The notes under the pieces: generated by a model
What the model was told of the DNA's origin: nothing
The model's database searches: none
The model's input: only the letters and a program-made list of their open reading frames with translations
Program-made: the position numbers and the translations under genes
NCBI GenBank assembly: GCA_003551675.1
Contig: PUNG01000152.1
Coordinates: 5,377-69,376, forward strand
Direction of reading: 5' to 3'
DNA from: Thermoplasmata archaeon
GTDB taxonomy: Archaea; Thermoplasmatota; Thermoplasmata; Halarchaeoplasmatales; Halarchaeoplasmataceae
DNA length: 64,000 bases
Shown: piece by piece, positions 9,828-26,422 of the stretch
How positions within the stretch are numbered: position 1 is the stretch's first letter
How the letters are laid out: every line of letters starts with the position of its first letter

Positions 9828-9843
9828 AAAGTATCTGTGAAGA

Positions 9844-10320
9844 TCAGAAAGCCGAGTCGTAATCTCCTTCGTCTATGAGTTTTTGGACTTCCCTAGGCTC
9901 TTTTTCATCCACGGTGATACCCATGGATACGCAGGTGCCTATGACCTCTTTGGTCTTCTGTTTCAAGTTTTTTCCGAGGAGATCATCTTCTTTCATCTCC
10001 GCGACCTCTTTAGCTTGTTTTATTGTTATGTTTCCCGCTTTACTGGTCTTAGGATTACCGCTCCCCTTTTCGATACCCGCCTTTTCTAAAACTAGGGCGG
10101 ATGTGGGAGGGGTACCTACTTCGATCTCGAAGTCACCAGATTCTGTATCGACCGTGAGTTTTATGGGGACTTTCATCCCTTCAAACTTGCCGGTCTTCTC
10201 GTTTATCGCGTTGACGATTTTCATTATGTCGACTCCGAGAGGTCCCAATTCAGGACCCAGCGGAGGTCCCGCGCTGGCTTCGCCGCCATCAATCAATGCT
10301 TCTATCGTTTCAGTTGCCAT
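9844..10320 (-). CDS. rpl11: 50S ribosomal protein L11 (uL11)
   Basis: uL11 signature SAGPPLGPELGPLGV; 158 aa. Confidence 0.9.
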   Translation of the reverse strand: MATETIEALIDGGEASAGPPLGPELGPLGVDIMKIVNAINEKTGKFEGMKVPIKLTVDTESGDFEIEVGTPPTSALVLEKAGIEKGSGNPKTSKAGNITIKQAKEVAEMKEDDLLGKNLKQKTKEVIGTCVSMGITVDEKEPREVQKLIDEGDYDSAF

Positions 10321-10346
10321 ATTATCATCTCTTTATGTGACTAATA

Positions 10347-11252
10347 TCATCTATCTTTTTCCAGGACTCTGACATGATCGCCTCTAACGGTAACGGGGAT
10401 GGGCACGGTGGCTTCGAACAGTTCCACGGTGATCTCGTCGTTATCTTTATCTATCTGGGCGACCCTTGCCTTCTCCCCCTTGAAAGGTCCTGCGGATAAC
10501 TCTACTATGTCCCCTTCCGCTATACCTTCCACTGCAAGTTTTGGAGCTAGAAAATGTTCTATCTCTTCGATACTCGTTTCGCCTCCTATGACCCCTTTGG
10601 CTTTCCTTGTACCGTCGGTGATCTCGTCGACCAGGGTTGGGTTCATTGCTTCTATAAATACGTATCCTCTGACTGGTTTTGGAGCTAGGATGGAAAAAAC
10701 GCCCATATCTTTATCTTTCGCCCAGGATGCTATGTAATCCGCGACGTTCTTCTCCTGGTTGATCTGAGTTTTCATGGCTATAACGGCCGGTCTCGCAGTA
10801 GTTACTAAAGTCAAAGAATCGGATAACATCTTATCTTTAGATGAAGTCGCATCGATTATGATCTCTGCTTTGTCTCCATAACTAGCTCCCTCTGGAGCAC
10901 GGACACCGATGGGCAACATAAATTCGTCATTTCCGTCAACTTTGATGGTCTTGTTGAATGAATCCGAAGGTTCTGACAATTTATCTCCGTCCCATAAGGT
11001 GATCTGCCACGGTATCGGGTTTTCCTCGTCCGAACTGTACAGTAGATGTATCCTCAAATCGATGCTGATCTCCGAAGACGAGGTGTTGACCAATTTGACA
11101 TTATAAGTGGTTTTTTCTCTAGTAGGGATGGATTTTTTGTAAGGTTCACACTTTAAAATGATTTCTTTCTCTTCCTTTTCCTCCTCTTCCTCGGGAAATT
11201 TTTCTTCTTCCTCTGTGATTTCGTCCTCGGTAAAGTCGTCTAACAGTCCCAT
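10347..11252 (-). CDS. spt5: Transcription elongation factor Spt5 (NusG family) with unusual ~150-aa N-terminal extension
   Basis: C-terminal NGN segment (VIAMKTQINQEKNVADYIA...RGYVFIEAMNPTLV) plus KOW segment (GDIVELSAGPFKGEKARVAQID). The N-terminal 150 aa are acidic (EEEEKFPEEEEEKEEKE) and followed by a beta-rich segment. Confidence 0.8.
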   Translation of the reverse strand: MGLLDDFTEDEITEEEEKFPEEEEEKEEKEIILKCEPYKKSIPTREKTTYNVKLVNTSSSEISIDLRIHLLYSSDEENPIPWQITLWDGDKLSEPSDSFNKTIKVDGNDEFMLPIGVRAPEGASYGDKAEIIIDATSSKDKMLSDSLTLVTTARPAVIAMKTQINQEKNVADYIASWAKDKDMGVFSILAPKPVRGYVFIEAMNPTLVDEITDGTRKAKGVIGGETSIEEIEHFLAPKLAVEGIAEGDIVELSAGPFKGEKARVAQIDKDNDEITVELFEATVPIPVTVRGDHVRVLEKDR

Positions 11253-11286
11253 GTTTTCACCTCGAATAGAATCCCTGATCTCATAA

Positions 11287-11532
11287 TCATCCCATCATGA
11301 AATAATCTGGTAAATTATTCCACAGCCAAGTAAGCAGAAAACCGACTGAGCCTATGAGCAGCAGTCCTCCTACGACTATGAGCAGGGTTTTTTTGAACTC
11401 TTCTCGATCTGGCTTTCTAGCCATCTTGAGAATCCTACCGTATTTGCCTTTTCCTATCTTTCCTGCTTTTTCTTCGATTTTATCTTGTATATTCCAGGAC
11501 CCTTCAATAATGTCCATCTGTTTTCCCCTCAT
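11287..11532 (-). CDS. secE: Preprotein translocase subunit SecE (Sec61 gamma)
   Basis: 81 aa with the motif KPDREEFKKTLLIVVGGLLLIGSVGFLLTWL and a single C-terminal TM. The ftsZ-secE-spt5-rpl11 order is conserved in archaea. Confidence 0.75.
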   Translation of the reverse strand: MRGKQMDIIEGSWNIQDKIEEKAGKIGKGKYGRILKMARKPDREEFKKTLLIVVGGLLLIGSVGFLLTWLWNNLPDYFMMG

Positions 11533-12653
11533 GCAATTGTTTTGATCTCATCTTTATTCATCGCTATCTCTTTTCCAAAGATCTGTTTAGACTTCACTCC
11601 TGTGATGACCACCATAACTTTCAGAGATTTTTCTTGGGTGGGCTCAACCGCGGCACCCCAGATGATCTTAGCATCCTTTCCTATCTTATTCTCTACGATC
11701 TTAGCGACTTCTTCGGCCTCTGATACCGTCATATCGCTACCGCCTACGACGTTGATCAACGCAGCGTTAGCACCACGTATATCCACTTCGAGCAACGGCG
11801 AATTGATGGCGTCTTCTATGGCCTTTTCCGCTCTATTTTCCGAGTCGTCTTCTCCCATGCCTATCATGGCCACTCCCGCTCCTTCCATGACCGTCTTCAG
11901 ATCGTTAAAATCAAGATTGACCAGGCCTGGTTTAGTTACTAGTTCCGTCAAACCTTTGATAGAGCGGGTGAGAACTTCATCGGCTACTTTGAATGCTTTG
12001 TTTAAAGACAAACGCGGACACAGTTCCAGCAGTTTATCGTTCGGGATGGTGATAACGGTGTCTGCCACGTTTTTAAGTCGGGAGAGACCCCATTCTGCGT
12101 TTTCCATCCTGGACTTTCCTTCGGCTTCGAAAGGAGTGGTACAAACTGCAACGGTCAAAGCACCTTCTTTTTTTGCCATCTCGGCCACAACGGGTGCTCC
12201 CCCAGTACCGGTACCTCCTCCCAGTCCACACGTAACGAATACCAGGTCGCTTCCTTCTAAGATATCCTTCAATTTGTCTCTCGCTTCTTCGGTCGCTTCC
12301 ATACCTATCTCGGGTCGAGCCCCTGCACCTAGTCCTCCGGTTTTACGTCGTCCCAATAGCACCTTTCTTTGCGCAAGAACGGTCAAAAGATGCTGAGCAT
12401 CGGTATTAGATGCTATAAGTTCCGCACCTTGTAATCCCTCTTCTGAGATCCGTTCTACAGTGTTGCATCCTGCTCCACCAACCCCGACGATCTTTATGTT
12501 CGTCTTCAGACCTTGAAGTACCTCTCTCAGCTCTTCGTCGGCGGCGGTTAGGTTCTCGCCTCTCTGATCTTTGGACCCCGTCCTTCCTGATTTGCTTCGT
12601 TCAGTTTTAGACAGAGCCTCTTCAACAATCGATTCCATCAATACACACTCCAT
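11529..12653 (-). CDS. ftsZ: Cell division protein FtsZ
   Basis: Tubulin/FtsZ signature GGGTGTGGAPVVAEMAKK; IASNTDAQHL; N-terminal VGVGGAGCN. Confidence 0.9.
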   Translation of the reverse strand: MECVLMESIVEEALSKTERSKSGRTGSKDQRGENLTAADEELREVLQGLKTNIKIVGVGGAGCNTVERISEEGLQGAELIASNTDAQHLLTVLAQRKVLLGRRKTGGLGAGARPEIGMEATEEARDKLKDILEGSDLVFVTCGLGGGTGTGGAPVVAEMAKKEGALTVAVCTTPFEAEGKSRMENAEWGLSRLKNVADTVITIPNDKLLELCPRLSLNKAFKVADEVLTRSIKGLTELVTKPGLVNLDFNDLKTVMEGAGVAMIGMGEDDSENRAEKAIEDAINSPLLEVDIRGANAALINVVGGSDMTVSEAEEVAKIVENKIGKDAKIIWGAAVEPTQEKSLKVMVVITGVKSKQIFGKEIAMNKDEIKTIA

Positions 12654-12698
12654 TTGGAGTTAAATCATACTGTATAGTATCCCAATCATTAATCCCTT

Positions 12699-12706
12699 AT
12701 ATAAAA
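12699..12706 (-). promoter_or_regulatory. Putative TATA box for ftsZ
   Basis: On the minus strand TTTATATA lies about 46-53 bp upstream of the ftsZ ATG. Confidence 0.3.
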
Positions 12707-12753
12707 TGTTTTGCCCCTAAGCCCGGTAAAAACGATCATTCAACTTTTTCAGT

Positions 12754-13305
12754 TCATGCCGTCTTTTTCCAGGAGAATATATTGATCAAGAGATACAGTA
12801 TGAAAAATACCGCCGAAGAGAAGATAACCATGAGTATTATCTCTATATTGGCTCCTATGCCCATCTCTAAAGAACTGTATGCGCCTATCAATCCGGCGAA
12901 AACGGCCAAAAAAAATCCCATCACGACGTTACCAAACAAGTCATTCAAGGCGGATCTTTTAAAGTCCTGCACGTTCTTGTCCGAACTACTTTCAAAAACT
13001 TCATCTATACCGCTGACCAGCAGCGTGTTCCTAGCGTAGAACCAAACACCTACGAAGAGGAAAAAGAAACCTATTATCGATAACAGGTTGGCGGTTGTGA
13101 AAGAGATCACCCTGTTGACGAAAAGGTAAGATATTATCAGCAGAGGTATACCTGAATCCAGGAATAATAGCCTACGCACATTGTAACCTATCAAGGGGAC
13201 TATACAGAAGATCAAGGGAAAAAACCAGTATACCGAATGAAGGGATGTCAGACTCGCCAGTGCCGCCGACAAGATCATCAAGGCGGAAACAAAAACTCTA
13301 GTCAA
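12754..13305 (-). CDS. Polytopic membrane protein (module gene D, copy 1)
   Basis: 183 aa with about 5 TM helices. Paralogous to 21198..21725 (shared SLHS.YWF.P..F......YN......LD.GI....S..FVN and IGFFFLFVG.WFY.RN). Confidence 0.5.
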   Translation of the reverse strand: MTRVFVSALMILSAALASLTSLHSVYWFFPLIFCIVPLIGYNVRRLLFLDSGIPLLIISYLFVNRVISFTTANLLSIIGFFFLFVGVWFYARNTLLVSGIDEVFESSSDKNVQDFKRSALNDLFGNVVMGFFLAVFAGLIGAYSSLEMGIGANIEIILMVIFSSAVFFILYLLINIFSWKKTA

Positions 13306-14588
13306 GCTCGTCTTTTTCTCTGTCTGTATCTTAACACCTCCTCTAAAGCCGGTTCTAAAGGTTGGTTAGGATCCCAATCCACTACCACCGTTCCGTAGGT
13401 CCAAAGTTTTTCTATTATATTCTTCCTTTCCGCACGGTGTAATTTTTCCGCCGTAGATCCAAGGTCACCCACGATATTTTTTTCTATCTTTACAGGGTCT
13501 GGAGAGATCACCATAACGTCGTATTCTCTTCTGCAAAAGTCTACGATGGTGTCGCTGAACTCGGGTACCGTTAAGGGGGAAATAAAGATGATCATGCTCC
13601 TTCTTGGAAAAAAATCCTCTAATAGCCACTTAACACCTTCAAGGCCCCAAGTACCCCCTTTTTCAAATTTGGCCAAGTTGGATAAGATGCTTTGGTATTG
13701 ATTTTTGCCCGTACCCGGGTAGACCCAGTTAAGGTACTCGCCCGCCACTATGACCCCTACCTGATTCCGGGCGGAAAGTATGGCCGAGGACAAACTCGCT
13801 GCCGCGTCTACGGAGGATTCCAGTGTGTTATTTCTCATGGTCCCTACTATACCTTTTTTATATCCGTCCACCACCAAGATCACGTCCCCTGATTTTTCAG
13901 CTTCGTATTCGTTGGTGAAGGGCTTTTGATATCGTGCGGTAGCCTTCCAGTTTATATCTCTGATCTCGTCGCCTATATGGTATTCCCGCAGAGAAAAGAA
14001 TTCGTTACCTACACCTATGCTTTTTGATTTTATATCTCCAAGCCAGTGCTTGGTATAACTGGGATTTATATCTATTTTTTTCATCTCTTGAACCCGTGGA
14101 AGTATCCGTATCGATATATTTTCTTCTTCATCTAATTCTTCACTAAAAAAATTAAAGGTGTCCCTGTATCTTATCTTGGTGGGGCCCACTTCTATCTTTC
14201 CACTGACAGGGCATGAGATCTTGTAGTATAGATCTTTTTTTTCTCCCTTTTCAAGCCTCACGATTTGATGGTTAGATCCATCTACCACTTCAACAAGGGA
14301 GGGGAGTATGTCGTGTACCTCCAAAAAACGTAGTTCATCTCCTTTATTTTCTAGATGGATATTCAGTTCGATCTCGTCGCCCAAGTAAACGTCTCTTATC
14401 CCTCTACTGGTCTCTCTACGAACATCTACGCGAATATCGTCAGGCGGTAGCGATCTACCCACGATGACGAAGAGTGCTAGGGACGATATGGCCCCCATAA
14501 AGAAAACCCAACTTCTGAATAGATTTCCCAGGAGCACCGTTAAAATGGTGAGTGCCGTCAGATAGACCAGGAGTTTATCCATCTTCAT
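13302..14588 (-). CDS. DUF58-family (vWA-like) protein with N-terminal TM segments (module gene C, copy 1)
   Basis: DUF58-like core NEFFSLREYHIGDEIRDINWKATARYQKPFTNEYEAEKSGDVILVVDG. Two N-terminal TM helices are followed by a beta-rich domain. A 4-nt overlap with the downstream gene suggests an operon. Confidence 0.7.
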   Translation of the reverse strand: MKMDKLLVYLTALTILTVLLGNLFRSWVFFMGAISSLALFVIVGRSLPPDDIRVDVRRETSRGIRDVYLGDEIELNIHLENKGDELRFLEVHDILPSLVEVVDGSNHQIVRLEKGEKKDLYYKISCPVSGKIEVGPTKIRYRDTFNFFSEELDEEENISIRILPRVQEMKKIDINPSYTKHWLGDIKSKSIGVGNEFFSLREYHIGDEIRDINWKATARYQKPFTNEYEAEKSGDVILVVDGYKKGIVGTMRNNTLESSVDAAASLSSAILSARNQVGVIVAGEYLNWVYPGTGKNQYQSILSNLAKFEKGGTWGLEGVKWLLEDFFPRRSMIIFISPLTVPEFSDTIVDFCRREYDVMVISPDPVKIEKNIVGDLGSTAEKLHRAERKNIIEKLWTYGTVVVDWDPNQPLEPALEEVLRYRQRKRRA

Positions 14589-14634
14589 GTATTACACCCC
14601 TCAGCAGCCGAGAACGTAGACTTCGTATTTTGCA

Positions 14635-15258
14635 CTAGTTCCATTCTTCGATCCTCCGTATGATCTCCTTTACTTTTTTTTCGTAATCTTTTTTTGACTC
14701 TTCATCCTTGGACCCAGGTCGTAGAAATCTTTCAAGTCCCTTTTTTTGCTCTCTCCCATGATCGTTAGAGAGCATGAAATCCGAGATCATATCGTCTTGA
14801 ACCATGCTGCGGAACTCGTCTGGGTTTCTCAAAAGATATCGTACGTCTTTTTCAGATAGATCTTTTTTTTCTTTCAATTTCATGATGAATATTTTTCTAA
14901 CCTTTTCCAAGAACATTTTTTGACTTATCTTCTTTCCCTCAGAAGCTCTTTGAAGGAGGACCGACGTATCCTGCATCCTTAGGTTTATGGTCTCGTCGAG
15001 TTCCTTTTTTTCTTTCCAGAAATCGGGCTTTTCAGTGGAGCTCATGGTCAACTGGATCAAGTCAAATCCGATGACGATCAGTAAAAGGAATCCCAACGCC
15101 CTTCCTATGCTCTTCTGTATGCCGCTCCCTCCCTCTAATGTCAATACGAAAAAAGAGACGATCAACAGCAGTAGTAGGATGTAATAGACATTCGAACTTT
15201 TTTTCCGTAGGATCAGGTCTTTTTTGATCATCGACATGTTAAACGAGGTTTCAGACAT
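14635..15258 (-). CDS. Membrane protein with 2 TM and cytoplasmic helical K/E-rich domain (module gene B, copy 1)
   Basis: Paralogous to 23035..23577 and 26419..27087 (shared C-terminal DVRYLLRNPDEFRSMVQDDMISDF / EVNKLIRYPDKFRDVVKDDTLADF / DIKELLKNEDDLRKIVEDETLVDF). Confidence 0.5.
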   Translation of the reverse strand: MSETSFNMSMIKKDLILRKKSSNVYYILLLLLIVSFFVLTLEGGSGIQKSIGRALGFLLLIVIGFDLIQLTMSSTEKPDFWKEKKELDETINLRMQDTSVLLQRASEGKKISQKMFLEKVRKIFIMKLKEKKDLSEKDVRYLLRNPDEFRSMVQDDMISDFMLSNDHGREQKKGLERFLRPGSKDEESKKDYEKKVKEIIRRIEEWN

Positions 15259-15261
15259 GTT

Positions 15262-16239
15262 TCACTCCAAATCTTTTTTTAATTCCTTAAGATTTTTTAA
15301 GGTCCGGTTCTTTTCCTTCTCACCCAGCGGATGAGAACTGTACTTGGCCAGCTCGAACACTTCTCTTATGTTTACGATCTTTAAGGAGGGCACATCTAAT
15401 TTTTCAGTCGCTAACTCTTCAAATTCCCTAGGTGTCATGGAATCTTCGTTCTCCACGCCCTTCTCTTCCAGTATCAAGCACATCTGCTGGTAGCATCTTA
15501 TTATGGTGGATTTCACGTCTCTGCCTTGGTGCAGCTCCGTTATGGCACGGTCAACGGCAGAAGTTATGTCGTCCTCCAACTTGTCTTCGTCTTCTACCTG
15601 TTTAGAGGGTTTCAGCGGCTGGAATCTTTGATACATGAAAAAAACGATGGCTAACACGAAGATAAGGATGAATACGGCCACCCCGGGTCCCCCTATACTT
15701 TCAGTAGCCACTCCAGCTTCATCCCAGAGATATGAGACGGACTCCCCGTTCAAAGAAGGTAGACGGTCAAGGGGAAAGTAGCCGTAAAGTGCATCCGCCA
15801 ATACATCACTGAAAGCATAGACTATCAATCCGCCGATCCCAATGAAAAGGGATACTAGGATCGCCACCTTTTTTGAACTTATATGCCCTTGCAAAACCGC
15901 AAAGAGTAGAAGACCACTACCCAGTATGATAAGCCCGAAATATAAAGCACCCAAAGCCTCAAAGAAGATCGGAGTTATGACCCAAAACAGTGCAAAACTC
16001 AACAGCAATAAGAGCATACGTGATCTTCCTTTATAGAATACGACTGCCGCTATAAAGAAGGGCGCGATGATACCTATGACTGCAAGGTAAGAAAGGTTTA
16101 GAGGACTCCCTCCTATGTCGTACTGAAAATTCATCATATTCCCTATAAGCCATGCACCTAGAAGGAAGAGGATGAAGGTCGTCACTACCGTTGTTTTTTT
16201 GTCCAAACTTATTCCTCTCAGTCGAAACAAAATCAACAC
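15262..16239 (-). CDS. DUF4129-like membrane protein (module gene A, copy 1)
   Basis: About 8 TM helices. The C-terminal cytoplasmic domain (DRAITELHQGRDVKSTIIRCYQQM...TPREFEELA...FELAKYSSHPLGEKE) matches the recalled DUF4129 pattern (TPrE...yE.arYs). Confidence 0.6.
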   Translation of the reverse strand: MLILFRLRGISLDKKTTVVTTFILFLLGAWLIGNMMNFQYDIGGSPLNLSYLAVIGIIAPFFIAAVVFYKGRSRMLLLLLSFALFWVITPIFFEALGALYFGLIILGSGLLLFAVLQGHISSKKVAILVSLFIGIGGLIVYAFSDVLADALYGYFPLDRLPSLNGESVSYLWDEAGVATESIGGPGVAVFILIFVLAIVFFMYQRFQPLKPSKQVEDEDKLEDDITSAVDRAITELHQGRDVKSTIIRCYQQMCLILEEKGVENEDSMTPREFEELATEKLDVPSLKIVNIREVFELAKYSSHPLGEKEKNRTLKNLKELKKDLE

Positions 16240-16260
16240 TCCGTGGATTTTAATCTTTTG

Positions 16261-16277
16261 CTATAGCCTCGCTAGTG
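16261..16277. repeat. 17-bp exact direct repeat CTATAGCCTCGCTAGTG (copy 1; copy 2 at 19746..19762)
   Basis: The 17-mer is identical at 16261 and 19746 and brackets the large surface-protein gene. Confidence 0.5.
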
Positions 16278-16289
16278 TCGTATCCCTAC

Positions 16290-16492
16290 ACATAAAAGAG
16301 TCTGGTGAGCACGAGTTGAAAGCGGAAGGTGTGAGCCTCACTTTTACAGTCGAAGAAGTCACAACCGACAGCTGGTTGGTAGTTGCGTTGATCCTCTCGA
16401 TCATAGCTCTGCTCTTGTTCGTCTGGATGGGGATGCAAAGTGACGAGAAGACGGTTGATAAGCCCACCCTTAGGAAAAAAGAGAATGAGTGA
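16290..16492 (+). pseudogene. 3' fragment of a surface-protein paralogue (C-terminal TM-anchor coding remnant)
   Basis: Its translation LKAEGVSLTFTVEEVTTDSWLVVALILSIIALLLFVWMGMQSDEKTVD matches the C-terminus of the 16546..19575 product (AEGFTRIIDVEEVTTDGWLIAALILSIIALLVFVWMGMESDGKTVD). Nucleotide identity is high, and no upstream gene body is present. Confidence 0.55.
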
Positions 16493-16545
16493 TATAACTG
16501 GTGTTATCGTGCGGTAGAGTATTCATCTCCTTAAGTGATATATAG

Positions 16546-19500
16546 ATGTATATCTATATAGTCTATAAAAGAAGGATTTGTATGAGGGAAAAGAGATTGG
16601 TCTTCGTCGTAAGTTGCCTACTTATAACCGGCGGGATGGTAGTTGTTGTCGGGGGCGAGGCGATAGAAGGGAACGAAAGTGTTGGTGGAGTGACAGGGGA
16701 AAATGAACCGCAGGCTGTTCAAGAGATCCACGACTGGTACGATCTCGATGATGTGCGGGACGATCTAGACGGCGATTATATTCTGATGAACGATTTGGAT
16801 GAAAATACCGACGGTCATGACGAATACAACAACCAGAAAGAGAATTATAAAATCAGAGAAGATGCTGGATATGAAGAAGCTTGGGACGATGGCGATACGA
16901 TAGATATACCCTTTGATGAAGATGATTATGATTCAGTTTTATCAGTTGAAGATGAAGACGGAAACTCTATAGATCATACTGTAGACCATCCCACGATCAC
17001 AATAGATGAAGACACGGGGGAACGATATATTTATGTAAACTACGAAGATGCTGTTGTGGGCTGGGAGCCGATAGGTGATGATGATGACGGATTTTCAGGT
17101 ACTTTCGACGGAGATGATTATGAAATAAGGGACCTCTACACCGACCGATTAGGCACAGATAACGTTGGCCTGTTTGGGTATATCGATGAAGGTGGAGAAG
17201 TTCGCAACGTTGGTGCTGTCGATACGGATGTGAGGGGATTCATTGGTGTAGGCGGGCTCATAGGATTTATCTATGAAGGCACGATCGAAAACTCATACGT
17301 CACGGGTGATGTGAGTGGAGACTCGCATGTTGGTGGGCTCGTTGGATGGAACGCGGGGGAAGGCACGGTGGCGAACTCGTATGCTACGGGAGATGTGAGT
17401 GGAGAAGGTGGTATAGGTGGGCTCGTTGGAACGAACATAGGCACGGTGGCGAACTCGTATGCAACTGGAGACGTGAGAGGGGGAGGTGGTATAGGCGGGC
17501 TCGTTGGATCGAACTCTGGCCTGGTGGCGAACTCGTATGCTACTGGTGTGGTGAGCGGGGGAGACAGTGTAGGCGGGCTCGTTGGTGTGAACCATGATAC
17601 GGTGTCGAACTCGTATGCTACTGGTGTGGTGAGTGGGGGAGATGGTATAGGCGGGCTCGTTGGAATGAACATAGGCACGGTGTCAAACTCGTATGCTATA
17701 GGAGATGTGAGTGGAGACGAGCTTGTAGGCGGGCTCGCAGGACTTAACTATAAAGGCACGATCGAAAACTCGTATGCAACTGGAGGGGTGAGCGGAGATG
17801 AGGACATAGGTGGGCTCGTTGGATTGAAATTTGAAGGCAGCACGGTTGAGAACTCGTTCTGGGATATCGAAACATCAGGACAAGATGATTCCAACGGCGG
17901 TACAGGGAAGACCACCGTTGAGATGAAGGATGCTGTGACCTACACAGATACAAGTACTGAAGGATTGAACGAGCCGTGGGATTTCGTAGGCGATCCGAAC
18001 GACGACGAAGGTGATGAGGATATATGGGACATCGACGATAGTACTAACGACGGATATCCATTCTTGACTTGGTCAGCAAGGGAACTTGCGATAAACATCG
18101 AAGGCAAAGGTAATACCGAACCTTTGGAAGGTACTCACACCTATGTAAAAGGTACTGAGGTAACTGTTACAGCAACGCCTGATGAGGGCTGGTACTTTGA
18201 CGGTTGGACTGGCGATCACGAAAATGCCAACAGGGAGATAACGATAATCATAGATGACAATAAAATCCTGACGGCTAATTTTGATGAGATAAGAGAAGGA
18301 GAACAAGTTTTAACGATAAATGTTGATGGTGAAGGCACGACGGAGCCGAAGCCAGGAGATCACATCTATGACAAGGGTGAAGAAGTCACGATTAAAGGGA
18401 TTCCGGAAGAAGGCTGGTACTTTGTCGAATGGACCGGCGATCACGAAGGTACAGAAGACAAGCTCACTATAACTATGGACGAGGATAAAGAAGTAACAGC
18501 TCATTTTGCCATACACGAATACACCTTGACGGTGAACGTCGAAGGAGAAGGAACTACCGATCCTGAAGAAGGTATTCATAGTTATGAAAAAGGAGATATC
18601 GTGACGGTTGAAGCTACGCCCGCAGAGGACTGGATTTTTGTAGAGTGGATAGGAGACGAGGTAGGAACGGACACGACCATAGAGATAAATATGTACGAAA
18701 ACAAGAGTATAACGGCTGTCTTCGAAGAGATCCAAACATACGAGTTGACGGTAGATGTAGAGGGTGAAGGCACCGTAGAAGTTGAGCCTGAGCGGGAAGA
18801 GTACGAAGAGGGCACGGAAGTCATTTTAACAGCGGTACCTGACGAAGGTTGGTACTTCGAAGAGTGGACAGAAGACTATGAAAGTACTGAAGACGAACTC
18901 ACCATAATCATGGACAGTAACAAAGAAATCACGGCATGGTTCGAAGAGGAAGTAAAGTATCACGAGCTAGAGGTGAACATAGACGGTGAAGGCACCGTAG
19001 AAGTTGAGCCCGAGCAGGACGAGTACGAAGCGGGCACGGAAGTCACTTTAACAGCGGTACCTGCCGAAGGTTGGTACTTCAAAGAGTGGTCTGGTGACGA
19101 AACAAGTACAGAAGTGGAAATCACCGTCACCATGGACGAAGACAAAAACATCACCGCACATTTCGAGAAGTTAGCTCCTGCGGAATTCGAATTCTCTGCC
19201 CTAACAATAGAGCCGGGAGAACCGGAGGTGGGCGAAGAAATCAAGATAAACATAGAAGTGACCAACATGGGTGGGCTAGAAGGAGAATACACCGTAGAAT
19301 TTTACATGAACCATGCTCTCATCGACGAAGTAGATGTAGAGCTGGAGGCCGGTGAAACAAAAACGGTTTCAACGACCTACGAGATCGAAGAGGCTGGGGA
19401 TTATCACATAGAAGCGGAAGGTTTCACTCGGATTATCGATGTCGAAGAAGTCACCACCGACGGTTGGTTGATCGCCGCTTTGATCCTTTCGATCATCGCT

Positions 19501-19575
19501 CTACTCGTGTTCGTCTGGATGGGGATGGAGAGTGACGGGAAGACAGTTGATGCTCCCGAGGAGGACGAAGACTAA
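16546..19575 (+). CDS. Large cell-surface protein: signal peptide, GLUG-motif repeats, about 7 Listeria-Bacteroides-type repeats, CARDB-like domain, C-terminal TM anchor
   Basis: N-terminal signal/TM segment (LVFVVSCLLITGGMVVVVGG) and an acidic region. About 8 repeats of GGLVG.N.GTV.NSYATGDVSG are GLUG-like. About 7 repeats carry GWYF.EWTGD...ITA.F. A CARDB-like segment reads EPGEPEVGEEIKINIEVTNMGGLEGEYTVEFYMN. The C-terminal TM is WLIAALILSIIALLVFVWMG, followed by an acidic tail. Confidence 0.85.
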   Translation: MYIYIVYKRRICMREKRLVFVVSCLLITGGMVVVVGGEAIEGNESVGGVTGENEPQAVQEIHDWYDLDDVRDDLDGDYILMNDLDENTDGHDEYNNQKENYKIREDAGYEEAWDDGDTIDIPFDEDDYDSVLSVEDEDGNSIDHTVDHPTITIDEDTGERYIYVNYEDAVVGWEPIGDDDDGFSGTFDGDDYEIRDLYTDRLGTDNVGLFGYIDEGGEVRNVGAVDTDVRGFIGVGGLIGFIYEGTIENSYVTGDVSGDSHVGGLVGWNAGEGTVANSYATGDVSGEGGIGGLVGTNIGTVANSYATGDVRGGGGIGGLVGSNSGLVANSYATGVVSGGDSVGGLVGVNHDTVSNSYATGVVSGGDGIGGLVGMNIGTVSNSYAIGDVSGDELVGGLAGLNYKGTIENSYATGGVSGDEDIGGLVGLKFEGSTVENSFWDIETSGQDDSNGGTGKTTVEMKDAVTYTDTSTEGLNEPWDFVGDPNDDEGDEDIWDIDDSTNDGYPFLTWSARELAINIEGKGNTEPLEGTHTYVKGTEVTVTATPDEGWYFDGWTGDHENANREITIIIDDNKILTANFDEIREGEQVLTINVDGEGTTEPKPGDHIYDKGEEVTIKGIPEEGWYFVEWTGDHEGTEDKLTITMDEDKEVTAHFAIHEYTLTVNVEGEGTTDPEEGIHSYEKGDIVTVEATPAEDWIFVEWIGDEVGTDTTIEINMYENKSITAVFEEIQTYELTVDVEGEGTVEVEPEREEYEEGTEVILTAVPDEGWYFEEWTEDYESTEDELTIIMDSNKEITAWFEEEVKYHELEVNIDGEGTVEVEPEQDEYEAGTEVTLTAVPAEGWYFKEWSGDETSTEVEITVTMDEDKNITAHFEKLAPAEFEFSALTIEPGEPEVGEEIKINIEVTNMGGLEGEYTVEFYMNHALIDEVDVELEAGETKTVSTTYEIEEAGDYHIEAEGFTRIIDVEEVTTDGWLIAALILSIIALLVFVWMGMESDGKTVDAPEEDED
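17290..17830 (+). repeat. ~60-bp tandem nucleotide repeats (about 8 units) encoding GLUG motifs
   Basis: Recurring units such as ggtataggcgggctcgttgga...ggcacggtggcgaactcgtatgctactggag...gtgagtgg occur with high inter-unit identity. Confidence 0.7.
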
Positions 19576-19745
19576 CTGCAGATCCTCACCAACAAAGTCG
19601 ACCTCAGTTTTTCCTTCGTATCGAATTCGTGCCCTTTGATGATGAGCACGTTCCGATTTTCCAACGATCTATCCGTTCAGATGAAAACGTCTACACCTCA
19701 TTTCGATCCAAAAACGAAAAGCAGATCCCGGAAAAATTAGAAAAA

Positions 19746-19762
19746 CTATAGCCTCGCTAGTG
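19746..19762. repeat. 17-bp direct repeat CTATAGCCTCGCTAGTG (copy 2)
   Basis: Exact match to 16261..16277, located 170 bp downstream of the surface-protein stop codon. Confidence 0.5.
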
Positions 19763-19790
19763 AAAGATTAATGTACTACCAAAAACAGTT

Positions 19791-20537
19791 ATGATCGAGG
19801 TATGGAATATGAGGAGTTTCACCAGGACAAAAGTCCTGATCGTTTTGGGGCTTATCTTGTTCAGTCCGGTACTTCCCTGGTATTATGGGGGAGAACAACA
19901 TGGCGAGCAGCTTTCTAGGGTCCCGGACTCTGAAAGCGTCAACTTGAACCCCGGTGATGATATGTTCACTTACCATTTTAGGGCCGAAGCCGAGGACGAA
20001 ATACATATCAGAGTATCCTCCGACAGACAGCCGTCTTTCCAAGTGGTCCTCATACCCGTAGAACACCTGGACGAATATAGACAAGATCCATCCTTTACAG
20101 ATATAGAGAAGATCGAAGAGGCGTCCAACAAACAAACCAGATCGTTCAGGGCACATCTATCCGTACCTGAAGAGGGCGAATACGTTCTGGTCGTTCGTTC
20201 CTTGGACTCCAGGAGTGCGGTTTACAACGTTTTGATCGGAAGAGGTCTTTTTTCATCGATGGTGGTACGATCAGGAGGATTTGTGGAGTTTTTCGGTATC
20301 CTCTTTATGGGTGTCGGTGCTGTATCCGCTAGCATCTATCTTTACATGAGGTTGAAAGAAAAAAAGAAAGACTCACTGAAGAACGGAATTTCCTTGGATA
20401 TGAGTTTATCGCAGATCGATGAGGAAGACAAGGAGAGATACAAAACGGAGGAAAAAAGACCGGATATAGGCTCTTCCACCCATACCGTCGAGGACGACTC
20501 TTCACCCGAAGAAGACTACCTTAGATATGATGATTGA
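19791..20537 (+). CDS. Secreted/membrane-anchored protein of unknown function (signal peptide, C-terminal TM, acidic tail)
   Basis: N-terminal hydrophobic segment VLIVLGLILFSPVL, a central soluble domain, a C-terminal TM FGILFMGVGAVSASIYLYM and a D/E-rich tail. Confidence 0.45.
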   Translation: MIEVWNMRSFTRTKVLIVLGLILFSPVLPWYYGGEQHGEQLSRVPDSESVNLNPGDDMFTYHFRAEAEDEIHIRVSSDRQPSFQVVLIPVEHLDEYRQDPSFTDIEKIEEASNKQTRSFRAHLSVPEEGEYVLVVRSLDSRSAVYNVLIGRGLFSSMVVRSGGFVEFFGILFMGVGAVSASIYLYMRLKEKKKDSLKNGISLDMSLSQIDEEDKERYKTEEKRPDIGSSTHTVEDDSSPEEDYLRYDD

Positions 20538-20605: not shown

Positions 20606-21205
20606 ATGAGTAAAACAGGAAAGTACCGTTCTCTAGATCTCGATGATAGCAACTCGAGGACAAAGGCCAATCCCTTCTTGAGAGTGATCGCTTTTTTTAT
20701 AGACGTGGTGATGATCAGGCTCGTTGTGGAGTTTGTAGCGTTTTCTCTGGCCCGGGCAGAATTGATCTCTGAAAGATGGATGGACGTAGTCGGAGGATAC
20801 CTAAGAGAAGGTCTAGCTCCATTACGAGGGGGTGCCATGAGTAGGGAAGAGATACTCATCATAACATCCACCGAGGACCTAACGGTACATATCCTCTACA
20901 GTGCTTTGTTTTTGATGTATTTTATTTTACTGGAGTCCAGGTACGGCTGGGGTCAGACAATCGGGAAGAAGATCTTGAGCATGGAAGTTTTAGACCGACA
21001 CAGCAAAAAGATATCCTTGAAGGAATCATCTTTACGGAACATCCCCAAGTACGTACTCCGCATACCGGTAGTGGGAGTTTTTTTTGGCTTGTTCGAGTTG
21101 TTTCTGATGTTCTATTACCTCAAACGAACAGGCGATATCTTGGCGAACACCGACGTGGTTTCACAGTATGGAAAAGGCTTGCTAGGACGGATCTTCTCTA
21201 GATAG
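20606..21205 (+). CDS. RDD-family membrane protein (tentative)
   Basis: The N-terminus ANPFLRVIAFFIDVVMIRLV resembles the RDD-domain start. There are 3-4 TM helices. Confidence 0.45.
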   Translation: MSKTGKYRSLDLDDSNSRTKANPFLRVIAFFIDVVMIRLVVEFVAFSLARAELISERWMDVVGGYLREGLAPLRGGAMSREEILIITSTEDLTVHILYSALFLMYFILLESRYGWGQTIGKKILSMEVLDRHSKKISLKESSLRNIPKYVLRIPVVGVFFGLFELFLMFYYLKRTGDILANTDVVSQYGKGLLGRIFSR

Positions 21206-21751: not shown

Positions 21752-23077
21752 TTATCTTCGCTTGTATCTTAACACCTCCTCCAAAGTCGGTTCTAGAGGC
21801 TCTCTAGGGTCCCAGTCCACCACGATGGCTCCGTGGGTCCAGAGCTTGTCTAACAGATGCTGCCTTTCCGCGTGGTGCAGCTTTTCGGCCAGACCTTCAT
21901 AATTATCCGTGAGATCCATCTCGATCTTGAGGGGGTCTGGAGAGATGACCATCACGTCGTATTCTCTCATACAAAGATCGATCATGGTCTCGCTGAATTT
22001 TGAAACCGTCAACGGAGAGATAAAGATAATCATGCTCTTTCTCGGAAAAAGATCCTCTAGGATCCATTTTACTCCCTCCATCCCCCAGCCGCCGCCCTCC
22101 TCGAATTTCGTAAGGTTCGCGATTATACGATGATAGTGATTTTTACCGGTACTAGGGTACAGCCAATTAAGATAACTGCCCGAAACTATCAATCCCACAC
22201 GGTGTCTAGATGAAAGAAGAACTGAGGCTAGACTTGCGGTTGCATCTATGGACGCCTTCATGGTATTATGTTCCATGGTTCCTATCATACCTTCTTGGTA
22301 GCCATCTACAACCAATATCACGTCTCCGCTTTTTTCGCCTTCGTATGCGTTGGTCTTGGGGTCCAAGTATCTAGCCGTGGCCTTCCAATTGATGTCTTTT
22401 AAGCCGTCTCCCGGATGGTATTCGCGGAGAGCAAAAAATTCACTACCGAAGCCTATGTTTTTAGACTTAGTATCTCCTAACCAGTGCTTGGTGTAGCTTG
22501 GAGCAATGCTCACTTTCTCCATATCTTCGGTTTTAGGTAATACTTGAAGATCTATCTTTTTTCTTGGCTCCAATACCCTGGAAAAAAGACAAAGACCGTC
22601 TCTGTATCTCAACTTTATGGGCCCCACTTCAAAATTTCCTGTGACTGGACATTTTATCTTATAATCGAACTCGAAGACATCATTTGCTTTTATCGTACAG
22701 ATGTGGTGGTTGGTTCCCTCCGAAACTTCGATCCGCGGTGGAAGAACATCATGCACCTCCAAAAAGCGTATCTCGTCTCCCTTGTTTTTGATCTTTATCT
22801 TCAGTCGGAGTTCGCCTTCAACGTGAACTTCCCTCGCTTCATGCCGGGAACCCCTTTCCACTTCGATATGAAGGTTTTTAGGAGGTAGTGACCCCACGGC
22901 CACGACTAAAATTGCTACTGAACAGATGGTGCCTATGAAAAAGATCCAACTACCTAAAAGATTGCCGAATATGATCCCCGCAACCGCCAAGAGCACTATG
23001 TAAAGGAACGGCCTCCCTTTTTTCGTCTCTCCATCTACCCCCATCTGTCGATCCTCTCCATGATCTCTGATAACCAT
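21752..23077 (-). CDS. DUF58-family (vWA-like) protein (module gene C, copy 2)
   Basis: SEFFALREYHPGDGLKDINWKATARYLDPKTNAYEGEKSGDVILVVDG; about 60% identical to copy 1. Confidence 0.7.
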   Translation of the reverse strand: MVIRDHGEDRQMGVDGETKKGRPFLYIVLLAVAGIIFGNLLGSWIFFIGTICSVAILVVAVGSLPPKNLHIEVERGSRHEAREVHVEGELRLKIKIKNKGDEIRFLEVHDVLPPRIEVSEGTNHHICTIKANDVFEFDYKIKCPVTGNFEVGPIKLRYRDGLCLFSRVLEPRKKIDLQVLPKTEDMEKVSIAPSYTKHWLGDTKSKNIGFGSEFFALREYHPGDGLKDINWKATARYLDPKTNAYEGEKSGDVILVVDGYQEGMIGTMEHNTMKASIDATASLASVLLSSRHRVGLIVSGSYLNWLYPSTGKNHYHRIIANLTKFEEGGGWGMEGVKWILEDLFPRKSMIIFISPLTVSKFSETMIDLCMREYDVMVISPDPLKIEMDLTDNYEGLAEKLHHAERQHLLDKLWTHGAIVVDWDPREPLEPTLEEVLRYKRR

Positions 23078-23577
23078 TCTTCGTATTCCTCGTCTTCCCT
23101 AACATCCTCTTCTGCATCGTCCTCGTCGGCTAGTACGAAATCAGCCAGGGTGTCGTCCTTCACCACGTCTCTAAATTTATCAGGGTACCGGATAAGTTTA
23201 TTCACTTCGTCTCTGGATAGATTTCTTTCAACTTGCAGTTTGCTTAAAAAAATATCTTTTATCTTTCTTTCTAAAAGACCGCGGCTGACCCGCATCCCTT
23301 TAGACGCTCTTTTGACCAGGTTGGAAGTGTTCCCCAATCTAATATCTATCTCCTCTTTCAGAACTTCTTCGTGTTTCCAGATATCCTCGTCTTCCGTAAT
23401 TTCTCTCGCCCAGAGAACCAGGTTCATCCCCATGAGGAACAATATGAACATGGCTGAGAAATATCGTAGTAGTCCTTCCGAACCGACGGTAAAAACGGTT
23501 AAAACTAGGATGAAAAAACCGCTCAAGATATAGTATGATCTGTTCTTTTTATGGCCGAGACTATTCACGGCGTTCAT
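23035..23577 (-). CDS. Module gene B, copy 2 (2-TM plus cytoplasmic helical domain)
   Basis: Paralogue of 14635..15258. Confidence 0.5.
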   Translation of the reverse strand: MNAVNSLGHKKNRSYYILSGFFILVLTVFTVGSEGLLRYFSAMFILFLMGMNLVLWAREITEDEDIWKHEEVLKEEIDIRLGNTSNLVKRASKGMRVSRGLLERKIKDIFLSKLQVERNLSRDEVNKLIRYPDKFRDVVKDDTLADFVLADEDDAEEDVREDEEYEEWLSEIMERIDRWG

Positions 23578-24512
23578 CCCAATTCCTCCTGTATATCCTT
23601 CAGAGTCCTTACAGCTCGATCCCTTTCTTTTTCACCGAGTTCATGCTGGCTGTACTTTGCGATCTCGAACAATTTCCTGATCTCTGTTATTTTAGAGGCG
23701 GATACGTGTATGTTGTTGATAGCTCTTTTTTCGAACTCTCTAGGTGTGGTGAACTCAGTATCTTTCAAACCTTTCTTTTCAAGTATATTACACATCCTTT
23801 GATAGCATCTCAATATGGTGGATTTTACATCTTTTCCTTTGTGAAGCTCTTTGATGGCTTCATCTACAGTAGATGATATATCGTATTCTATATCTTTTTC
23901 AGATCCCTCCTCCTCGGATTTACGGAGTAAAGGTATCACTCTCTGCACCAATAAGAAGAGCAGTACCGCCGCGATCAAAAGTACGAGTATGAACGTGCCC
24001 ATACTACCGAATGCATGTTCTACCATGGCTCTAGAGTTATCCCAGGGGAGTGAAAGTCCCTCTCCGTTCCCCTCTGTTTGGATCGGGATCAGATCTCCTC
24101 CTGTTCCGAAATAGGTGACGATCAAAAGTAAAAGGCCTCCCAAAGCTATCACAACAAAATAGGCCGACATCCCTTTCTGTCCCAGCCCCTTCCAATACAT
24201 CAGAGCCAAAAGGAATATGGTGATGATTATCACCGAAGGCCAAAGTATCCCGTATCTCAGAAAAAGATAAGGTGCGAGTCCCATGGCCACAAGGCTACCT
24301 GAGACCATCAAAATAGTGGGAGACTTACTCTTCAAAACTATAAAGAGCGGCACGATCAATAACGGTAAATAGATCCACAACCAGGATATGGTGAAATCGA
24401 AGGTCTGTGTGTCCTCATCTAGTGTGGGTGATAAAGACATCACATTACCTATGCTCCAGGAAGCAAAAAGAAAGAGGATCAAGATCAATCCGGTCAATGT
24501 TTTTCTATCCAT
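23574..24512 (-). CDS. DUF4129-like membrane protein (module gene A, copy 2)
   Basis: C-terminal DEAIKELHKGKDVKSTILRCYQRM...TPREFEKRA...FEIAKYSQHELGEKE is paralogous to 15262..16239. Confidence 0.6.
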   Translation of the reverse strand: MDRKTLTGLILILFLFASWSIGNVMSLSPTLDEDTQTFDFTISWLWIYLPLLIVPLFIVLKSKSPTILMVSGSLVAMGLAPYLFLRYGILWPSVIIITIFLLALMYWKGLGQKGMSAYFVVIALGGLLLLIVTYFGTGGDLIPIQTEGNGEGLSLPWDNSRAMVEHAFGSMGTFILVLLIAAVLLFLLVQRVIPLLRKSEEEGSEKDIEYDISSTVDEAIKELHKGKDVKSTILRCYQRMCNILEKKGLKDTEFTTPREFEKRAINNIHVSASKITEIRKLFEIAKYSQHELGEKERDRAVRTLKDIQEELG

Positions 24513-24584: not shown

Positions 24585-25247
24585 TCAACCGATCTTCTTA
24601 CGTGCGAAGTACTTCGGTAAGAAAACTACGACTCCGTATACCGCTGTGAAAACTACTGCACCGAACAGGAGTATGATAAATGTGGCAAGATCAGGGGAAA
24701 AAGGTCCCACGAAACTATAGATGGCTACGACTCCTCCCAACGAAGCTACGACGAATCCCCAAAACAAAGACCACAGGTGATAATGTGCGGAATGTCTTTT
24801 GTATTCCTGAAGAAGATCCGTCTCTCCGTCTCCCTGCATATCTTTTTCTATCTCTCCGATCAACGATGCTCTTCTCATGAATGACCATGCACCAAAATAT
24901 AGGATGAACATGGTCAAAATAAAGATGAGATTAGCAGGGTTTAGTGAGATATAACGGACGAAGTAGAAAAAGGACGAAGCCGAAGCGAGGATACTCACAT
25001 CCACTGCAATTTTTATTTCCCGGTAGAATCCGATGATACCTACAGAACCACTTACCAGAGGAAACCACCATCCAGAAGTATCGTAAGATACCGCGGAGGC
25101 TAATAGACAGATGGTGAAGACGAACACGCCTAGTAAGATCTTATCAATTTTCAGCCTCCACTCATCTTCCAATATCTTATCACCTCCTCTAAAGACGCCT
25201 CTAAAGGTTCGTTGGGATCCCAGTCCACTACCACGCTGTATTTCCAC
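24585..25247 (-). CDS. Polytopic membrane protein (module gene D-like, copy 3, more divergent)
   Basis: 220 aa with about 5-6 TM helices, in the same position and orientation as gene D in copies 1 and 2. Similarity is weak. Confidence 0.4.
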   Translation of the reverse strand: MEIQRGSGLGSQRTFRGVFRGGDKILEDEWRLKIDKILLGVFVFTICLLASAVSYDTSGWWFPLVSGSVGIIGFYREIKIAVDVSILASASSFFYFVRYISLNPANLIFILTMFILYFGAWSFMRRASLIGEIEKDMQGDGETDLLQEYKRHSAHYHLWSLFWGFVVASLGGVVAIYSFVGPFSPDLATFIILLFGAVVFTAVYGVVVFLPKYFARKKIG

Positions 25248-26422
25248 AGCTTTTCTAGGATGATATCTCTTTCAAGCCGTGTGAGCTCTTCAGCTAACAA
25301 GTTATGTTCTTTCATGATCTCTTTCTGGATCACCAACGGGTTAGGCGATATCACCATGATATTATATTCCCTCATGCAGATATCGATTATCGTTTCGCTC
25401 ACCTTTTTGGAGAGCAGAGGGGATATGAATATGATCATACTCCTGTTAGGGAAAAACCGCCTCAAAAGCCACCTCGCATCTTTTAGTTTCCAATGACCTC
25501 CTTTTTCCACCTCGCTCAGATGCTCCATTATCTTATAAAATTGATCTCTCCCCGTCTCCGGATAGAGCCAATTCAGATAGTCGCCTAAGATGATCAGACC
25601 TACTCTGTTCCTGTCCGCGAGTATAGACGAGGCAAGGGAGCCGGCGGCTTGAATGGTCGCATCGAGAGTATTGATATCCGAGTTGCCTATGTTTCCCAAC
25701 CTATGTCCATCTACTACGATGATCACATCTCCTGATTTTTCACCGACGAATTCGTTGGTCATGGGTTCAAGAAATCTTGCACTAGCTTTCCAATTTATCT
25801 TTCTTATTTCATCGTCCACCATGTACTCTCTAAGGGAAAAAAATTCCGTACCTATCCCCATATGCTGTGACCCTATATTTCCCATCCACTTCTTCGTGTA
25901 TAAGGGTCTTACATTTACACTCTCCATGTCCTGTACTTTTGGCAGGACGAAGAGTTTCATCAATTTGTTGCTGGTCCATTCCTCAACATAGTAGTTAAGA
26001 GGATCTCTGTATCTGATCTCGATAGGACCTACTTTGATATCCCCTCTTTTAGGACATTTTATCTTGTAGCGGATGGTTTTCTCTTCTTTTTCATCCAATC
26101 TCAAAACCTGGTGATTTGATCCTTTTATAACCTTCACGTTAGAAGGAAGTGAATCGTATATCTCGATATAGTTCAGTGCAGAGCCATGATTCTTGACTGA
26201 CAGTTCGACCCATACATGGTCTCCTTCGTACAAACTCATCTTTTCAGATTTTCTTTCGGCTTTCAATTTGACGTCGCCTTTTAAAGCACCTCTGTTTCCA
26301 ACGGCCAGCATGGAAAAATTAGCGATGGCTAAGATGAGAAAAACCCAACTATCTAGGATCATACCGATGATAAGCGATAGGATGGTGACGGCGATCAGGC
26401 TGAAACTAGTGATCGATCTCAT
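25151..26422 (-). CDS. DUF58-family (vWA-like) protein (module gene C, copy 3)
   Basis: TEFFSLREYMVDDEIRKINWKASARFLEPMTNEFVGEKSGDVIIVVDG. Confidence 0.7.
   Translation of the reverse strand: MRSITSFSLIAVTILSLIIGMILDSWVFLILAIANFSMLAVGNRGALKGDVKLKAERKSEKMSLYEGDHVWVELSVKNHGSALNYIEIYDSLPSNVKVIKGSNHQVLRLDEKEEKTIRYKIKCPKRGDIKVGPIEIRYRDPLNYYVEEWTSNKLMKLFVLPKVQDMESVNVRPLYTKKWMGNIGSQHMGIGTEFFSLREYMVDDEIRKINWKASARFLEPMTNEFVGEKSGDVIIVVDGHRLGNIGNSDINTLDATIQAAGSLASSILADRNRVGLIILGDYLNWLYPETGRDQFYKIMEHLSEVEKGGHWKLKDARWLLRRFFPNRSMIIFISPLLSKKVSETIIDICMREYNIMVISPNPLVIQKEIMKEHNLLAEELTRLERDIILEKLWKYSVVVDWDPNEPLEASLEEVIRYWKMSGG

Follow-up and report, generated by a model that had tools for sequence, protein, structure and literature searches.

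What does an exact direct repeat around a large surface-protein gene record: a system that exchanges such genes, or a single rearrangement? The question is posed by a 64,000-nt stretch of DNA from a Thermoplasmata archaeon (assembly GCA_003551675.1, contig PUNG01000152.1, forward strand, positions 5,377 to 69,376; hereafter the window, from whose first letter all positions are counted). In it, a gene for a large surface protein, referred to below as the resident gene, lies together with a 3' fragment of a related gene between two copies of one 17-mer. An earlier note on this DNA had explained the arrangement by site-specific or homologous cassette replacement, with the fragment left behind by the previous resident, and had suggested a locus for antigenic or attachment variation. 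Our analysis found nothing here that shows a programmed switching system. The locus is a real, well-delimited rearrangement within a recombination-prone, lineage-specific gene family, and as such a case of ordinary genome churn. We consider it moderately probable that it arose by a one-off segmental insertion, accompanied by a 17-bp target duplication, into a palindromic divergent promoter.

An exact 17-bp repeat delimits a 3,468-bp segment

The 17-mer CTATAGCCTCGCTAGTG was found again without a mismatch (17/17) at both positions given in the earlier note, and the segment that it brackets (16278-19745) is 3,468 bp long. The repeat copies and the parts of the segment are as follows.

16261-16277, + strand: 17-mer copy 1, the putative left target duplication, centred on the dyad TAGC-CTC-GCTA
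16278-16492, + strand: 5'-truncated 3' end of a family gene resembling those of proteins P0043 and P0042, with the last CARDB strand, a transmembrane (TM) anchor, a basic tail and its own stop codon
16316-16492, + strand: 58-aa open reading frame (ORF) with a TTG start within the fragment; one public assembly annotates it as a gene (P0001)
16493-16581, + strand: AT-rich intergenic stretch with the resident gene's own promoter, as read from the sequence
16582-19575, + strand: resident surface-protein gene, 997 aa, with a signal peptide, GLUG repeats, five InlB B-repeats, CARDB and a C-terminal TM anchor
19576-19745, no strand assigned: non-coding tail of the segment, 170 bp, common to the remnants on contigs L032, L033 and L035
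19746-19762, + strand: 17-mer copy 2, the putative right target duplication

A search of the window for exact direct repeats of at least 14 nt returned the 17-mer as the sole pair of 17 nt or more outside homologous coding sequence and T-runs, and no third copy was present in the window at up to three mismatches. The earlier estimate that about 0.1 exact 17-mer pairs are expected by chance in 64 kb agrees with our calculation (N^2/2/4^17 = about 0.12), and a 17-mer match was seen in 0 of 100 shuffled windows. The dyad TAGC-CTC-GCTA, of the form TAGC-N3-GCTA, occurs in the window at the two 17-mers only.

A second exact 17-mer direct repeat, ATAGATCTTTTTTTTCT, was noted at 14228-14244 and 14856-14872, in two adjacent genes of the operon to the left of the segment (operon #1, see below). 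It is of low complexity and probably corresponds to a lysine run encoded on the - strand.

The bracketed segment is a composite of family sequences

The fragment comprises about 15 membrane-proximal residues and the TM anchor of a family protein. Its homology is clear over 16290-16465, and the frame remains open to its own stop codon at 16490-16492. Identity to the P0043 gene (contig L041), scored by blocks, is at the random level left of about 16290; therefore, some 12 nt separate the 17-mer from the start of the homology, and the 17-mer does not belong to the family sequence. The statement that no upstream body is attached to the fragment was borne out: to the left, a DUF4129 gene starts on the opposite strand.

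Comparison of the fragment (16296-16459) with the resident gene (19388-19551) gave 77% DNA identity. The differences are distributed 18/9/25 over codon positions 1/2/3, and the two sequences therefore diverged as coding sequences. At the protein level the identity is 62% over 61 aa, so the near residue-for-residue match described earlier is limited to the membrane-spanning core (ALILSIIALL.FVWMGM). The fragment shares 84% identity with two genes of contig L040 at their 3' ends, agrees with the P0043 gene in 15/15 nt across GGTGAGCACGAGTTG and has a tail similar to that of P0043 (KPTLRKKENE versus KPAVREKEKE). A recent local tandem duplication of the resident 3' end was rejected on these grounds, namely the identity of only 77%, the coding-type substitutions and the better match to other paralogues. 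The 18/9/25 pattern and the best match to a P0043-type gene thus uphold the view that the fragment is the remnant of a different, diverged family member. It does not look like the stump of a previous resident, however: both ends of the segment coincide with the repeat copies, and the stump therefore most likely arrived together with the resident gene as one piece. A TATA-like element, CATAAAAG, lies about 22 nt upstream of the predicted 58-aa ORF, and the intergenic stretch at 16493-16581 had no homologue elsewhere by BLAST.

For the resident gene, the length of 1009 aa given previously is correct if counted from the first ATG (16546-19575), but public gene calls start at 16582 and yield 997 aa. 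Its product scored above the curated Pfam cut-offs for PF07581 (238.9 bits), PF18998 (87.9 bits) and PF07705 (34.8 bits), and TIGR02543 was matched with 42.3 bits. Surface proteins composed of GLUG, InlB B-repeat (TIGR02543) and CARDB domains are found in archaea and bacteria, and the resident protein has these domains, ordered as usual, between a signal peptide and a C-terminal membrane anchor. It differs from these proteins at large in the anchor itself, EEVTTDxWLxxALILSIIALLVFVWMGM, which is lineage-specific.

The 170-bp tail aligns at about 85% identity with the DNA that follows the truncated family copies on L032, L033 and L035. On its - strand (19611-19664) it holds a stump from the propeptide region of an S8 subtilase, LENRNVLIIKGHEFDTKE, which matches subtilase residues 71-88 (LEDRNELNIKGHEFNT); such a gene neighbours a family member on contig L042. 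The junction between anchor gene and subtilase stump is one and the same in the window gene, L032, L033 and L035, and these four therefore go back to a single rearranged ancestor, copies of which later reached several places. The tail can be aligned with L032 up to a point no more than about 5 nt from where 17-mer copy 2 starts, and the tails of the window and L032 reach the same end point in the A-rich stretch GGAAAAATTAGAAAAA. At the right junction, the CT leaves a possible microhomology to an L032-like donor of 2-3 nt only.

The flanking sequences rejoin as a probable symmetric promoter

On either side, the repeat copies are adjoined by the following features.

15262-16230, - strand: DUF4129 gene, the left neighbour, first in operon #1 (DUF4129 / 207 aa / DUF58)
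16250-16258, - strand: AAAGATTAA, probable BRE/TATA (B recognition element and TATA box) core promoter of the DUF4129 operon, whose start lies about 20-25 nt downstream
19763-19771, + strand: AAAGATTAA, probable core promoter of the 242/248-aa membrane-protein gene, whose ATG at 19791 lies about 25 nt downstream
19791-20537, + strand: membrane protein (242/248 aa), the right neighbour, with no family match
20606-21205: RDD-family gene, downstream of the 242-aa membrane-protein gene

The window contains four copies of AAAGATTAA, at 16250 (-), 19763 (+), 24550 (-) and 56337 (+). All four stand upstream of a gene start in the correct orientation, and a start codon follows at about 20-25 nt in three of them; for the copy at 24550, the distance to the ATG (24512) is about 40 nt. 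A start about 20-25 nt downstream is what is expected of an archaeal BRE/TATA element that drives leaderless or short-leader mRNAs. The 17-mers are flanked by inverted copies of this 9-mer, the order being TTAATCTTT, TG, 17-mer at copy 1 and 17-mer, AAAGATTAA at copy 2. Judged from this sequence arrangement, the two 17-mers probably sit directly behind divergent core promoters, one of the DUF4129/207-aa/DUF58 operon and the other of the 242-aa and RDD genes. A sigma-70 promoter and terminator scan gave nothing above shuffled sequence, but such a scan is not applicable to an archaeon.

Deletion of 16278-19762 in silico rebuilds TTAATCTTTTG-CTATAGCCTCGCTAGTG-AAAGATTAA, a 37-nt near-palindrome. 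The rebuilt site forms a hairpin of -7.4 kcal/mol (z = -3.8) that was equalled in 2/200 shuffles, and the present junctions do not fold (z = -1.0 and -0.1). Since the segment is composite, ends at the repeats and is surrounded by sequence that rejoins as a symmetric promoter, a single insertion with a 17-bp duplication is the simplest account.

The surroundings are core chromosome, with genes for L11, Spt5, FtsZ, AlaRS, GDH, type III RuBisCO and ThiC. Mobile-element genes were sought by Pfam scans of the main ORFs of the 64 kb and among precomputed Pfam hits on the fetched contigs; none of these ORFs was recognised as a recombinase, integrase, transposase (including the Cas1 casposase) or reverse transcriptase. 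A homologue search with the 242-aa right-flank protein returned only the protein itself.

Three paralogous operons of the type DUF4129 / small protein / DUF58 follow one another on the - strand (13302-16230, 21752-24512 and 25151-27923). The + strand block of surface gene, 242-aa gene and RDD gene separates operon #1 from the other two, and the DUF58 genes of these operons have exact 14-19-mers in common (13325/21763).

Independent assemblies carry the same structure

An exact-protein look-up with the RDD neighbour gene led to ten contigs from Kulunda steppe soda-lake sediment metagenomes and metagenome-assembled genomes (MAGs), whose identity to the window is 99.8-100%. L024 (JGI 3300000477) and L025 (GCA_003553425.1) span the locus completely, both 17-mers included at unchanged spacing; the left junction is also present in L034 and L039 and the right junction in L026-L030. 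The spanning and junction contigs show the occupied structure throughout, at an identity of 99.6-100%, so that all nine junction-crossing assemblies (L024-L030, L034 and L039) are in the occupied state. In the right-junction contig of SRR16248216, the sequence runs unbranched from the right flank through the 17-mer into the tail. As the same structure recurs in independent assemblies of one near-clonal Thermoplasmatota population, it is not an assembly artefact. No empty or alternative allele was seen in any assembly examined. The resident gene is covered by L024 and L025 only, in which 0 and 3 single bases of the gene differ from the window.

L037 and L038, Logan contigs of two different runs, each end at 16267, inside 17-mer copy 1 and at the exact end of the perfect 8-bp palindrome GCTATAGC (16260-16267). 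These ends could stem from fold-back chimeric reads or from a third allele. They do not represent an empty-site allele, for which the branch point would be 16278. Other contig ends, at 19508, fall on the start of a 20-mer common to the fragment and the resident gene, and show that such repeats confuse short-read assemblers.

Group KTK 4A of the Thermoplasmata, which is uncultured, was reported to be abundant in these soda-lake sediments, and the host of the locus probably belongs to this uncultured lineage (PMC6146748).

The family is multi-copy and its 3' ends exchange sequence

Word-index searches with the fragment or with the last 204 aa missed even the resident protein. We therefore rely on a profile of the anchor, which was searched exhaustively against 1.84 billion cluster representatives and matched nine proteins, eight of them credible and one spurious. 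The rejected one, P0041 (855 aa), repeats a unit of about 60 aa 13 times in nearly identical form, as though a tandem DNA repeat of unrelated origin had been translated.

The family is multi-copy and mosaic, and several 5'-truncated remnants of it exist. On L033 (1329-1661) and L032 (430-762), the remnant is composed of a CARDB piece, an in-frame TAG and a 60-aa anchor ORF, whose TTG start is at the position homologous to that of the window fragment. These two contigs are 96.7% identical over 1 kb and then run into different genes; L033 is from the MAG that also includes L028, one of the contigs with the window's right junction. L035 holds a frameshifted copy that combines a resident-type CARDB, the fragment-type VSLTFTV motif and an L032-type tail. 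By eye, an inverted piece of InlB repeat seemed to precede the L033 remnant, but tblastn did not confirm it.

Intact members can be clustered. Contig L040 (GCA_003553425.1, PWEF01000123), from the same MAG as L025, contains at least five surface-protein genes at 6086-18502. Their heads (VWA, GLUG, PQQ-propeller and NosD beta-helix) are all mounted on InlB-repeat stalks, and two of the genes carry the same anchor. Within this tandem array, a 1319-aa anchor gene is followed by a 377-nt spacer and then by a GLUG-type gene. L040 itself was rejected as the actual donor of the segment, its identity being only 84% and its spacers unrelated.

Evidence of exchange was found in L039 (SRR16248215), which is identical to the window over 14139-16322. 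From 16323 to 16415, inside the fragment, it differs at 12 positions (93 nt, 13%), compared with about 11 for all of the other 6.3 kb. The 12 changes are divided equally between synonymous and non-synonymous (six each), and at several of them one or the other allele equals the family consensus or the state of L032/L035. Read from the sequence, these sharp edges indicate gene conversion or recombination with another family member and not local drift. The tract thus shows that family 3' ends exchange sequence. The region of the tract corresponds to L039 positions 1-105 (window 16323-16427).

A proposed single insertion and its rivals

Under the explanation we favour, the 3,468-bp segment (16278-19745) would have been copied from a tandem array of surface-protein genes elsewhere in the lineage. 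Its left break would have fallen inside the 3' end of the upstream array gene, creating the fragment, and its right break in junk DNA about 170 bp beyond the downstream gene. The landing site would have been the centre of the near-palindromic divergent-promoter region between the DUF4129 operon and the 242-aa and RDD genes, where breaks staggered by 17 bp, symmetric about TAGC-CTC-GCTA, would have been filled in to give the 17-bp direct repeat. We infer the staggered cut and fill-in, like the direction of the event, from the present arrangement; the symmetry of the duplication on the dyad suggests nicks made by a dimeric enzyme. Both neighbouring promoters and the gene's own promoter would have been left intact, and for this reason the insertion could be kept. 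The fragment would be a passenger, exchanging sequence with the family by homologous recombination because it is still about 80-85% identical to other 3' ends.

Several observations weigh against this account. The 25-mer TTTGCTATAGCCTCGCTAGTGAAAG, which covers the rebuilt junction, had no match in the genome and metagenome contig collections, although these lack the source contigs, which makes the negative a weak one. The donor array itself was not found, the best relatives of the fragment being only 75-85% identical. About 12 nt after copy 1 (16278-16289) match nothing, and the right boundary of the segment depends on a single comparator, L032. Finally, we know of no established mechanism, and no described archaeal element, that makes a 17-bp duplication without terminal inverted repeats or a transposase.

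The cassette replacement proposed earlier would require a site-specific system in which the 17-mer serves as an att-like core, an integrase is encoded elsewhere and cassettes are swapped as circles; alternatively, the segment could be a decayed integrated element. Integrase-mediated insertion leaves identical direct repeats of 15-50 bp, the 17-mer has a central dyad, and the two Logan contigs that end at 16267 could hint at another allele. We nevertheless regard such a system as unlikely. Neither an integrase nor the nearby recombinase sought by the earlier note is present among the main ORFs of the 64 kb, and the expected enrichment of the 17-mer at other surface-protein genes failed to appear: a 17-mer-like site with up to four mismatches is absent from the family loci L032, L033 and L035 and from the other related loci checked (L024-L039). 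Exact 17-mer scans of viral, genome and metagenome collections returned 2, 7 and 14 matches, all in unrelated taxa and flanks and hence attributable to chance, though these collections do not include the source contigs and the negative is weak. Five right-junction contigs (L026-L030) and four left-junction contigs (L024, L025, L034 and L039) read through in the occupied state, and a circular cassette that carries another gene's stump has no rationale. A Campbell-type single crossover of a circle at the anchor was rejected, as it predicts a full gene upstream and the stump downstream, the reverse of what is seen; nor do integron cassettes offer a parallel, the junctions not folding as an attC hairpin and no integrase having been found in the window. 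Improbable to a similar degree is programmed gene conversion, in which the truncated 3' copies (the fragment, L032/L033 and L035) would be silent donor or recipient cassettes as in pilE/pilS or msp2, and the 17-mer would be incidental. One expressed gene is indeed accompanied by promoterless truncated copies with conserved flanks (the resident on the one side; the fragment, L032/L033 and L035 on the other), several of these copies keep an intact and highly conserved anchor frame, family members are mutually mosaic, and the L039 tract (12/93 nt) lies inside the fragment. In these respects (promoterless 5'-truncated copies, conserved ends, mosaics and a conversion-like tract between two strains), the locus resembles pilE/pilS of Neisseria, the msp2 pseudogenes of Anaplasma and vlsE of Borrelia. 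It departs from them in that the stump, and not the expressed gene, contains the tract, the copies consist mainly of the anchor, and there is no sign of high-frequency switching. Some copies are degraded, with the in-frame stop of L032/L033 and the frameshift of L035 as in decaying copies; repeats that are 80-90% identical recombine without a dedicated system; and no resident-gene variation was seen among strains, mosaic variants traceable to silent copies being absent from the two contigs that cover the gene (L024 and L025, both assemblies). The stump covers almost only the TM anchor, the part least useful to vary. For the same reason the suggested antigenic or attachment variation locus was not supported: the fragment is too short and a poor donor for anything beyond the membrane anchor. 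A diversity-generating retroelement was rejected as well, since the window has no reverse transcriptase and the differences are of all types and not adenine-specific.

Other explanations concern the repeat itself. The 17-mer could be the operator of a dimeric transcription factor at two promoters, both copies predating the gene between them; this we find unlikely. Both copies abut AAAGATTAA within 0-2 nt, and in the window the internal inverted repeat TAGC-N3-GCTA is confined to these two sites. However, the copies agree in 17/17 positions even though only 10/17 are self-complementary, and they face opposite ways relative to their promoters. Furthermore, the promoter of the paralogous DUF4129 operon #2 (24550) has AAAGATTAA but no 17-mer, and an operator leaves unexplained why homology stops at both copies. 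Very unlikely, in our view, is copying by a reverse-transcriptase or casposase-like activity acting in trans, which is called to mind by features of target-primed insertion (a shared 3' end, variable 5' truncation, an A-rich end, and a long duplication in the window copy alone). The left ends of the four copies differ, the tails of the window and L032 stop at the same point in the A-rich stretch, and 17 bp is within the range of such mechanisms and near the 15 bp of the casposase of Aciduliprofundum boonei, a member of the Thermoplasmatota, whose target duplication is 15 bp and rarely 16 or 22 bp (PMC5137440). Against it, the searches for a reverse transcriptase, Cas1 or terminal inverted repeats came back empty, a promoter and part of the gene upstream are contained in the window copy, a duplication is visible at one copy only, and L033 ends elsewhere. 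A chance match of no biological meaning is the least credible of all: about 0.1 such pairs are expected per 64 kb, but none of the 100 shuffled windows produced one, and the two copies mark homology boundaries and lie at inverted promoter motifs.

The one-off insertion shares traits with two known kinds of event and is identical to neither. As in casposon and transposon insertions, a discrete segment is bracketed by an exact direct target repeat of similar length (17 versus 15), and the local dyad symmetry of the target is consistent with staggered cuts by a dimer. Unlike them, it has no casposase, PolB, transposase, tRNA target or terminal inverted repeats (none between the segment ends 16278-16300 and 19720-19745, which are unrelated by eye), its cargo is a patchwork of chromosomal genes, and only a single event is apparent. 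With segmental duplications made by break repair or template switching (of the type of microhomology-mediated end joining or microhomology-mediated break-induced replication), the locus shares breakpoints that look arbitrary (one inside a gene, one in junk DNA), a composite segment, a lack of mobile-element genes and the possible 2-3 nt of microhomology, but such events usually leave a microhomology of 0-5 bp and not a clean 17-bp target duplication.

If the insertion account is true, the locus illustrates cleanly, in a natural setting, the spread of an archaeal surface-protein family by a composite segment entering a palindromic divergent promoter. The long duplication without transposon hallmarks would then point to a break-and-fill or integrase-like activity new for Thermoplasmata. 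Its chief interest, for a one-off rearrangement and not a new system, lies in the mechanism of the 17-bp duplication and in the conversion tract: dead 3' ends that still exchange sequence with live family members are raw material from which programmed variation systems can evolve. Thermoplasmata are generally wall-less, and the cell surface of the host lineage is unstudied. A bolder idea, to which we give little credence, is that truncated anchor copies are working parts of homologous recombination that reshuffle membrane-proximal ends, or that the fragment has been co-opted as a leaderless 58-aa membrane peptide, with its TTG start, TATA-like box and basic cytoplasmic tail; in that case the 17-bp duplication would be the trace of an archaeal insertion activity, not described so far, by which family segments move in the absence of terminal repeats.

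Other features of the window

A further surface-protein gene enters the window at its left edge.

1-1142, + strand: second surface-protein gene, 3' part, with three InlB B-repeats, CARDB/Big_7 and a C-terminal TM (Pfam)

It had been taken for a diverged paralogue of the resident gene. Its architecture of InlB B-repeats, CARDB and C-terminal TM is indeed that of the resident, but its anchor sequence is unrelated.

Three adjacent genes at 45567-49241 (-) encode an AMP phosphorylase-like protein (Glycos_transf_3), the large subunit of type III RuBisCO and an IF-2B-family protein resembling ribose-1,5-bisphosphate isomerase, which together make up the archaeal AMP salvage set. A 607-aa protein encoded at 41369-43192 (-) combines PIN, secretion-type ATPase and KH domains. 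Two tRNA genes that presumably contain introns, in keeping with an archaeon, lie at 32083-32180 (-; 98 nt) and 53329-53479 (+; 151 nt); they were found with Rfam and missed by ARAGORN in bacterial mode.

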